403 nucleotides of DNA from a phage, in sequence record BH153126.1. One strand, written 5' to 3'. The notes under the pieces are model-generated. The model had not been told where the DNA came from. It searched no databases and saw only the letters and a list, made by a program, of their open reading frames with translations. The translations under genes and the position numbers were made by a program. Below are positions 1-403 of the stretch, in pieces (within the stretch, counting starts at the first letter, position 1; every line of letters starts with the position of its first letter).

Positions 1-72
1 ATCGAATCCCAGCGTGTCGAAATCGCATCCAGTATCATGATGCAAGGTGAAGAAGAAAAAAGACCGCGATGA
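1..72 (+). CDS. 3' end of an upstream protein-coding gene (5' end outside the window), read exactly as written in frame 1; product unidentified
   Basis: Frame 1 is open from base 1 to TGA 70-72, with a second in-frame TGA at 73-75, giving IESQRVEIASSIMMQGEEEKRPR*. Codons 1-60 are typical preferred enterobacterial codons (atc, gaa, tcc, cag, cgt, gtc, gca, ggt). The last three sense codons include two rare Arg codons (AGA, CGA), which suggests the true frame is lost near 58-63. Frames 2 and 3 are closed at 38-40 and 48-50. Confidence 0.4.
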   Translation: MESQRVEIASSIMMQGEEEKRPR

Positions 73-139
73 TGAAGATATGGAAGATGAGGACGAAGAT
101 CGCAAAGACGATAAAAAAGACAAAGAAGACGACGAATAA
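1..139 (+). pseudogene. Alternative reading of the same gene: frame 1 (1-60) joined to frame 2 (62-139) by a one-base register change in the A6 run; C-terminal K/D/E-rich charged tail; frameshifted gene, sequencing error, or recoding
   Basis: Frame 2 (41-136) reads CKVKKKKDRDDEDMEDEDEDRKDDKKDKEDDE, followed by tandem stops TAA TAG (137-142). In this tract the T residues sit at codon position 2 or 3 in frame 2, mostly as the wobble base of GAT, which is a coding-frame signature. Frame 2 is closed upstream by TGA 38-40 and has no plausible start with an RBS, so it is best explained as the displaced 3' end of the frame 1 gene. One extra A in the run at 56-61 would give ...IMMQGEEEKKDRDDEDMEDEDEDRKDDKKDKEDDE**. 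Confidence 0.35.
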
Positions 140-140
140 T

Positions 141-146
141 AGGAAG
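141..146 (+). promoter_or_regulatory. Shine-Dalgarno / ribosome-binding site for the ATG at 152
   Basis: AGGAAG at 141-146, overlapping the second stop codon (TAG 140-142) of the upstream tail. The AGGA core ends 7 nt before ATG 152-154, within the usual spacing range. Confidence 0.5.
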
Positions 147-151
147 CCAAC

Positions 152-235
152 ATGATTAAAGATTTTACTCCTAAAGCTGACTTAGAAACTTTTCTGCCGG
201 AAGCACAGGAAATTGGACATGTTGGCTATGTTTGA
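152..235 (+). CDS. Small ORF as written (27 codons), probably the 5' portion of a longer frame-disrupted gene; product unidentified
   Basis: ATG 152 with a well-spaced SD; frame 2 reads MIKDFTPKADLETFLPEAQEIGHVGYV then TGA 233-235. The start lies 9 nt after the upstream tandem stops, an operon-like arrangement. At 84 nt it is too short to be confident as a stand-alone gene. Confidence 0.35.
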   Translation: MIKDFTPKADLETFLPEAQEIGHVGYV

Positions 236-395
236 GTCAGAAGAACTATTGAAAATCGTTGAAGGTATCTCCGAGGATGAGCCGAACTGGCGGTAGCAAT
301 GCTGTCTATCATCGACGGAATTATCGTAAATGAAGCAATGGTTAACATGTAACGCACGCGGGGAAGTTGCACGTAAGAAGATCGCAAACCCGTGA
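152..395 (+). pseudogene. Candidate small acidic protein gene (about 80 codons if restored) disrupted by about three frame changes; could equally be assembly indels
   Basis: Four consecutive open segments with protein-like composition and preferred codons: frame 2 at 152-232 (MIKDFTPKADLETFLPEAQEIGHVGYV); frame 3 at 234-293 (ESEELLKIVEGISEDEPNWR, stop TAG 294-296); frame 2 at 281-349 (AELAVAMLSIIDGIIVNEAMVNM, stop TAA 350-352); frame 3 at 354-392 (ARGEVARKKIANP, stop TGA 393-395). Each segment begins where the previous one ends. The individual segments are only 13-27 codons, so none is statistically compelling alone. Confidence 0.28.
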
Positions 396-403
396 GCGCA
401 TGC

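Follow-up and report, generated by a model that had tools for sequence, protein, structure and literature searches.

An apparent frame break in the prohead core gene 67 of an RB49-type phage sequence is very probably a homopolymer miscall

The prohead core of phage T4 contains about 340 copies of gp67 (PMC9958956, PMC9026906), a core protein that the gp21 protease degrades into peptides at L/I-X-E motifs (PMC9958956, PMC9026906), and the T4 core proteins named as dispensable include gp68, not gp67 (PMC9958956). The T4-like coliphage RB49 (Krischvirus, Straboviridae) encodes orthologs of T4 gp67/PIP and gp68 in its genes 67 and 68, both already known and annotated, and the properties of T4 gp67 would be expected, by orthology, to carry over to RB49. 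RB49 gp67 (NP_891728, 'prohead; precursor to internal peptides') is a single protein of 76 aa that ends ...IIESQRVEIASSIMIEGEEEKDRDDEDMEDEDEDRKDDKKDKEDDE before its stop codon. Over residues 1–76 it matches profile positions 1–75 of 80 in the Pfam family GP67 (PF17634) with 47.8 bits, against a cut-off of 27, and it matches the PHROG 1064 'prohead' profile with E=4.5e-23. The gene order portal gene 20, 67, 68, 21, 22 is annotated in RB49 and 14 other Krischvirus genomes, a list that includes KMB43 and kaaroe, and the same head-cluster order is found in the T4-type phage RB3.

We analyzed a 403-nt stretch of phage DNA (the window, throughout this text) that appears to carry a frame break in this gene cluster. 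A blastn search of 50,697 phage records returned 110 matches, the closest being Escherichia phage RB49 at 91128–91533 (97.1% identity), in the annotated genes 67 and 68. The window itself covers 67 then 68 only, namely, the 3' end of the gene for the prohead core protein gp67 and the 5' two-thirds of gene 68. In the alignment of 16 Krischvirus loci, the lack of a GAC-repeat insertion is a trait of RB49 alone that the window shares, and the C in GAGCGCAATGC is common to the window, RB49 and kaaroe only. Judged by its sequence, the window is RB49 or a practically identical phage. An RB49-like remnant was absent from 5,426 complete E. coli genomes, and the sole match in a plasmid search was a chance low-complexity hit to a Bacillus ATPase, so that an origin from a prophage or plasmid remnant was rejected. 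Directly 5' of the first base of the window, RB49 has the tetranucleotide GATC (CCCAGATC/ATCGAATCC, the slash marking the window start; L001:1497-1501 in the RB49 locus). A GATC at this position might hint at a read from the end of a Sau3AI/BamHI clone, and could equally be a coincidence, at about 1 in 256 for a 4-mer; a search for literature on the cloning of early RB49 fragments yielded nothing relevant to a Sau3A clone end.

On direct reading, frame 1 runs ATC...GGT GAA GAA GAA AAA AGA CCG CGA TGA TGA, with the translation ...IMMQGEEEKRPR, and passes through a run of six A residues shortly before the double stop. Past this run, frame 2 reads GAC CGC GAT ... GAC GAC GAA TAA TAG, that is, the acidic peptide DRDDEDMEDEDEDRKDDKKDKEDDE followed by two stops at 137-139 and 140-142. 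All of these elements, on which the original prediction had been built, are thus present (Table 1), although two of its descriptive details needed correction. The clean frame 2 reading, put at 26 codons, comprises 25, or 27 with the run's own two AAA codons included, and the preference for T at its wobble positions disappears on counting, given that the third positions hold 6 T, 8 C, 9 A and 2 G, and GAT and GAC occur six times each. A 30-aa GTG-started ORF in frame 2 has no exact product on record.

Table 1. Features and discrepancies in the 403-nt window (window coordinates), with the comparison to RB49 and its relatives
Feature	Position	Strand	Basis or comparison
Gene 67 (gp67), residues about 31-51	1..61	+	Frame 1 through the A-run; identical to RB49 (NC_005066) except 42-43 and the extra A
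Adjacent-base swap, GC in window, CG in all relatives	42..43		I-E of '...IMIEGEEE' becomes M-Q
A6 homopolymer, site of the frame break	56..61		A5 in every relative; one A extra in window
Gene 67 acidic C-terminal tail DRDDEDMEDEDEDRKDDKKDKEDDE and TAA stop, window frame 2	62..139	+	DNA 100% identical to RB49; tail lies within the Pfam GP67 and PHROG 1064 profiles
TGA TGA, frame 1, out-of-frame stops	70..75	+	True frame in RB49 is (G)AT GAT GA(A), D-D-E
Second stop TAG (140-142) and 67-68 intergenic spacer with Shine-Dalgarno-like AGGA (141-144)	140..151	+	Invariant in 16/16 relatives
Gene 68 (prohead core / head scaffolding gp68), first ~86 codons	152..403	+	Alignment to RB49 gene 68; three-frame translations
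A5 to A3, two bases missing, first gene 68 break	209..211		A5 in all relatives
GG to G, CCGAAC in window, CCGGAAC in RB49 and most relatives	283..284		Alignment
Adjacent-base swap, TC in window, CT in RB49 (ATC GTA vs ACT GTA; T to I in gp68)	324..325		Alignment
Five one-base A-run undercalls near the window 3' end	343..400		Alignment
AAA to AA	about 344		Homopolymer indel vs RB49
AAA to AA	about 351		Homopolymer indel vs RB49
AAA to AA	about 378		Homopolymer indel vs RB49
AAAA to AAA	about 386		Homopolymer indel vs RB49
AA to A	about 399		Homopolymer indel vs RB49

The central proposal of the original prediction, that the upstream gene is separated from its own charged tail by a change of one base in the A-run, held up well. 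Removal of a single A yields one ORF, IESQRVEIASSIMMQGEEEKDRDDEDMEDEDEDRKDDKKDKEDDE, closed by the two stops, and this repaired translation equals residues 31-76 of RB49 gp67 up to its stop, except for the swap of IE to MQ at 42-43. The extra A is the only reason why the double TGA seems to terminate the gene. The fused 45-aa fragment is 96% identical to RB49 gp67 and aligns with positions 33-75 of 80 in the Pfam GP67 profile (21.3 bits, E=3.7e-4), a score that lies below the cut-off of 27 because the sequence is only a fragment. Neither the truncated frame 1 piece nor the acidic piece matched any profile when searched alone, and it is homology, rather than chance statistics, that shows the two pieces to belong together. 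Inspection of the tails of the homologs, as the prediction had recommended, revealed a contiguous acidic tail in every Krischvirus homolog and in RB3 gp67 (...LIEGEEPEDEDEDEDDDEDSDDKDDKKDKDSDEDEDDE), and we found no homologs that end at ...EEEKRPR without it. Compared with RB49 gene 67, the window has the same DNA apart from the miscalls, the same succession of 67 and 68 and, once repaired, a contiguous acidic tail; it differs in having A6 rather than A5, which places the tail in another frame, and in the GC/CG swap, and we judge both differences to be artefacts.

Several features of this region vary, or are preserved, among the relatives independently of the frame break. The acidic tract (window 75-100, alignment columns ~77-106) is polymorphic in length among Krischvirus genomes, with in-frame indels of GAA/GAC/GAT repeats of 3, 9 and 12 nt that result in gp67 lengths of 72-80 aa; the short form of RB49 recurs in the window, and only Brandy has a shorter one. 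The I-E-G columns upstream of the tract are invariant, T4-type RB3 gp67 included, and the relatives keep the motif ...IMIE/G..., which through the swap reads MMQG in the window. The swapped site coincides with L-I-E of RB3 gp67, a match to the L/I-X-E motif of gp21. In the intergenic spacer, the equivalent of the AGGA is annotated in phage Ec_Makalu_002 as the ribosome binding site of gene 68.

At the site of the A-run in gene 67, 16 of 16 aligned Krischvirus loci have A5. We extended this comparison with a short-query test against the INPHARED phage genomes, using a 37-nt piece of the window containing A6 and the corresponding 36-nt piece of RB49 containing A5. The A6 query reached at best 97.3% identity, with one gap, in 58 records and at least 99% in none, whereas the A5 query was 100% identical in 40 of 59 records, and the identity bands of the other records differed between the two queries by exactly one column. 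The short-query test thus indicates that A6 occurs in none of the 58 complete Krischvirus genomes. The exact A6 pattern also gave no matches in IMG/VR viral contigs, JGI metagenome contigs or the 185,579 species genomes of GTDB; for the contig sets these zeros have almost no denominator, given that the exact A5 pattern itself occurred in a single viral contig and in no metagenome contig. INPHARED genomes were used because the contig collections are near-empty for the A5 version too.

A similar one-base change was encountered in gene 67 of phage vB_Eco_TB34 (OX001802, complete genome), whose second A-run (L014:521-525, at about 15,901-15,905 of the record) is A5, against A6 in the window (113-118) and in all 15 other relatives. 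The annotated gp67 of this phage ends ...DDKKIKKTTNNRKPT at its stop and overlaps gene 68. This change may be either a homopolymer error of the assembly or a real variant.

Downstream of the first 142 bases, to which the original prediction was confined, we found seven further breaks, all in gene 68. The ORF opens at ATG 152 (MIKDFTPKADLETFLPEAQE...) and then changes frame repeatedly up to the window end. Aligned with RB49 gene 68 (NP_891729, PHROG 1049) over its first ~86 codons, the window shows seven homopolymer deletions and one base swap, which split the gene into eight frame pieces, in frames 2, 3, 2, 1, 3, 2, 1 and 3. On the opposite strand, a 53-aa ORF (226-387) was dismissed; it is a frameshifted piece of an antisense frame of RB49 that is stop-free across the entire 410 nt (L001:1501-1910). 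Open antisense frames are common opposite purine-rich coding sequence, and this one is most likely such a frame rather than a gene. In phage ELT4 (OM803178, L015:563-961), gene 68 is annotated to start 69 nt downstream (locus position 632); the customary ATG at 563 still opens an intact full-length ORF, and the annotated start looks like a choice of the gene caller, not a sequence difference.

Altogether, the window and RB49 differ by ten discrepancies, of which eight are changes of homopolymer length and two are swaps of adjacent bases, with no isolated substitutions. The 15 natural relatives carry 0–16 substitutions relative to RB49, and their indels, the one-base change of TB34 excepted, measure only 3, 9 or 12 nt. 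All eight indels in the window fall in runs of at least two bases (P about 1.7e-3 under uniform placement) and seven of them in A-runs (P about 3.7e-4). The last 70 nt contain five of the eight (permutation over homopolymer sites, P=0.0055), and each of the four A-runs of three or more bases there is shortened by one. Across the window, 6 of 15 A-runs of at least three bases are miscalled, including both A5 runs, and the longest run, A6 at 113-118, is correct. Because the per-run error rate is this high, one miscall of A5 as A6 is to be expected without any need for biology. The A-run at the frame break is the sole overcall (+1) among the eight events and is located in the early window, where other runs are mostly correct, which makes it the most atypical event of the set.

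This pattern resembles the homopolymer miscalls of single-pass or low-coverage reads (late-read Sanger, 454 / Ion Torrent, nanopore) in that the indels are confined to homopolymers and are mostly undercalls, their density goes up toward the end of the read, substitutions do not accompany them, the sequence is roughly 400 nt long, and independent sequences lack the variants. The window does not, however, resemble the output of one specific chemistry, because errors in runs of 2-3 bases and swaps of adjacent bases also occur, as in a generally poor read. An old Sanger read or a flow-based read would be compatible with undercalls late in the sequence, with the swapped bases and with a length of ~400 nt. 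We consider it very probable, from these sequence comparisons, that A6 is a homopolymer miscall of a true A5 in a low-accuracy read of RB49, with gene 67 unbroken. Under this explanation, RB49 plus-strand DNA would have been read in an error-prone manner, probably in a single pass, with accuracy dropping toward the 3' end; a true A5 would have been overcalled as A6, shifting the acidic tail out of frame, and the same error process would have produced the seven homopolymer undercalls and the two adjacent-base swaps elsewhere in the window. In the phage, gene 67 would then be one continuous 76-codon ORF, with neither a truncated isoform nor recoding, and its product, helical in its N-terminal part and rich in D/E/K in its tail, would be incorporated into the scaffolding core of the prohead and broken down by the gp21 protease. 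We infer base-calling, rather than mutation, as the cause, and likewise the type of read.

The original prediction had listed a miscall, a genuine frameshift mutation and recoding into two C-terminal isoforms as explanations that fit; only the first gained strong support, with A6 present in no relative and seven further indels in the same window, and the other two were not supported. Were A6 real, gp67 would be truncated after ...EEEKRPR and lack the acidic tail, and the sequence would represent a newly formed pseudogene, a defective copy of the phage or a laboratory mutant. Homopolymer runs are true mutational hot spots for replication slippage, which favours such a mutation, and TB34, a deposited complete genome whose other gene 67 A-run differs by one base and whose gp67 is annotated with a frameshifted tail, demonstrates that states of this kind enter databases. 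A real mutation would, however, require that these 403 nt had acquired eight independent frameshifts and two inverted dinucleotides but no point substitution at all, whereas decay and divergence in the Krischvirus clade proceed mainly by substitution. An error density climbing toward one end of the window is, moreover, a trait of reads and not of mutation, and both the absence of an RB49-like remnant from the complete E. coli genomes and the absence of the A6 pattern from the GTDB species genomes speak against a genuine mutation. The T4 literature, moreover, does not name gp67 as one of the core proteins that assembly can do without (PMC9958956). We decided for a miscall over mutation and recoding because the same 403 bases hold the seven further homopolymer indels and the two swaps, and gene 68 is shredded; a genuine mutation appears very improbable to us, and some small probability is kept for a real A6 because the site is the only overcall and sits where the read is otherwise more accurate.

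Recoding of a real A6 would produce full-length gp67 beside a short isoform ending ...KRPR, either on the ribosome, by a +1 shift of tRNA-Lys from AAA (58-60) to AAA (59-61) ahead of the rare AGA, or by RNA polymerase dropping one A. The sequence A AAA AGA does present a slippery Lys codon ahead of AGA, a codon rare in E. coli, an SD-like AAGGTG is located upstream at 44-49, and the junction is open in both frames. In these respects, namely, a frame change at an A-run with both frames open, the window is similar to sites of programmed +1 frameshifting of the prfB type and to sites of A-run slippage, such as those in dnaX of Thermus and in IS elements; it is unlike them in being unconserved, in having too short a run and no correctly spaced stimulator, and in showing the same type of break throughout gene 68. 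Programmed sites are conserved, whereas the A6 site occurs in 0 of 58 genomes, the relatives read E-G-E-E-E-K-D in frame, and the ending RPR followed by two stops, which the short isoform would have, is found nowhere else. The +1 shift in prfB is stimulated by an SD element at a spacing of ~3 nt, whereas the AAGGTG lies 8 nt from the shift codon, and we rejected AAA AGA, together with the AAGGTG, as a +1 site of the prfB type on grounds of both conservation and spacing. Efficient transcriptional slippage in E. coli involves runs of about 8-9 or more, and A6 is below that length. A search for Rfam frameshift elements at a permissive threshold returned only a chance snoRNA match (E=0.5), and Tandem Repeats Finder reported nothing in the window. 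The seven further breaks in gene 68 are in any case beyond the reach of recoding, which we regard as exceedingly unlikely. Hardly any credence is left, likewise, for the variant in which the phage stock truly has A6, rescued by a +1 slip of tRNA-Lys on A-AAA-AGA or by loss of an A by the host polymerase, with the other seven indels being read errors; if true, it would represent an accidental, unselected recoding rescue of a head-scaffold gene.

On the sequence evidence assembled here, the frame break is almost certainly no real biological feature, and the value of recognizing a miscalled A5 lies in quality control, in that a false candidate for a pseudogene or for recoding is removed from a phage locus that is already well known. 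Annotated as it stands, the window would give a shortened gp67, a stand-alone acidic mini-ORF and a number of gp68 pieces. A further lesson is that a frame break at a homopolymer has to be judged from the whole read: the seven breaks that were decisive lie just beyond the segment (1-142) in which the original one was noticed. The A-rich stretch encoding the acidic tail of gp67 is susceptible to problems of this kind, as the change in the neighbouring A-run of TB34 illustrates.
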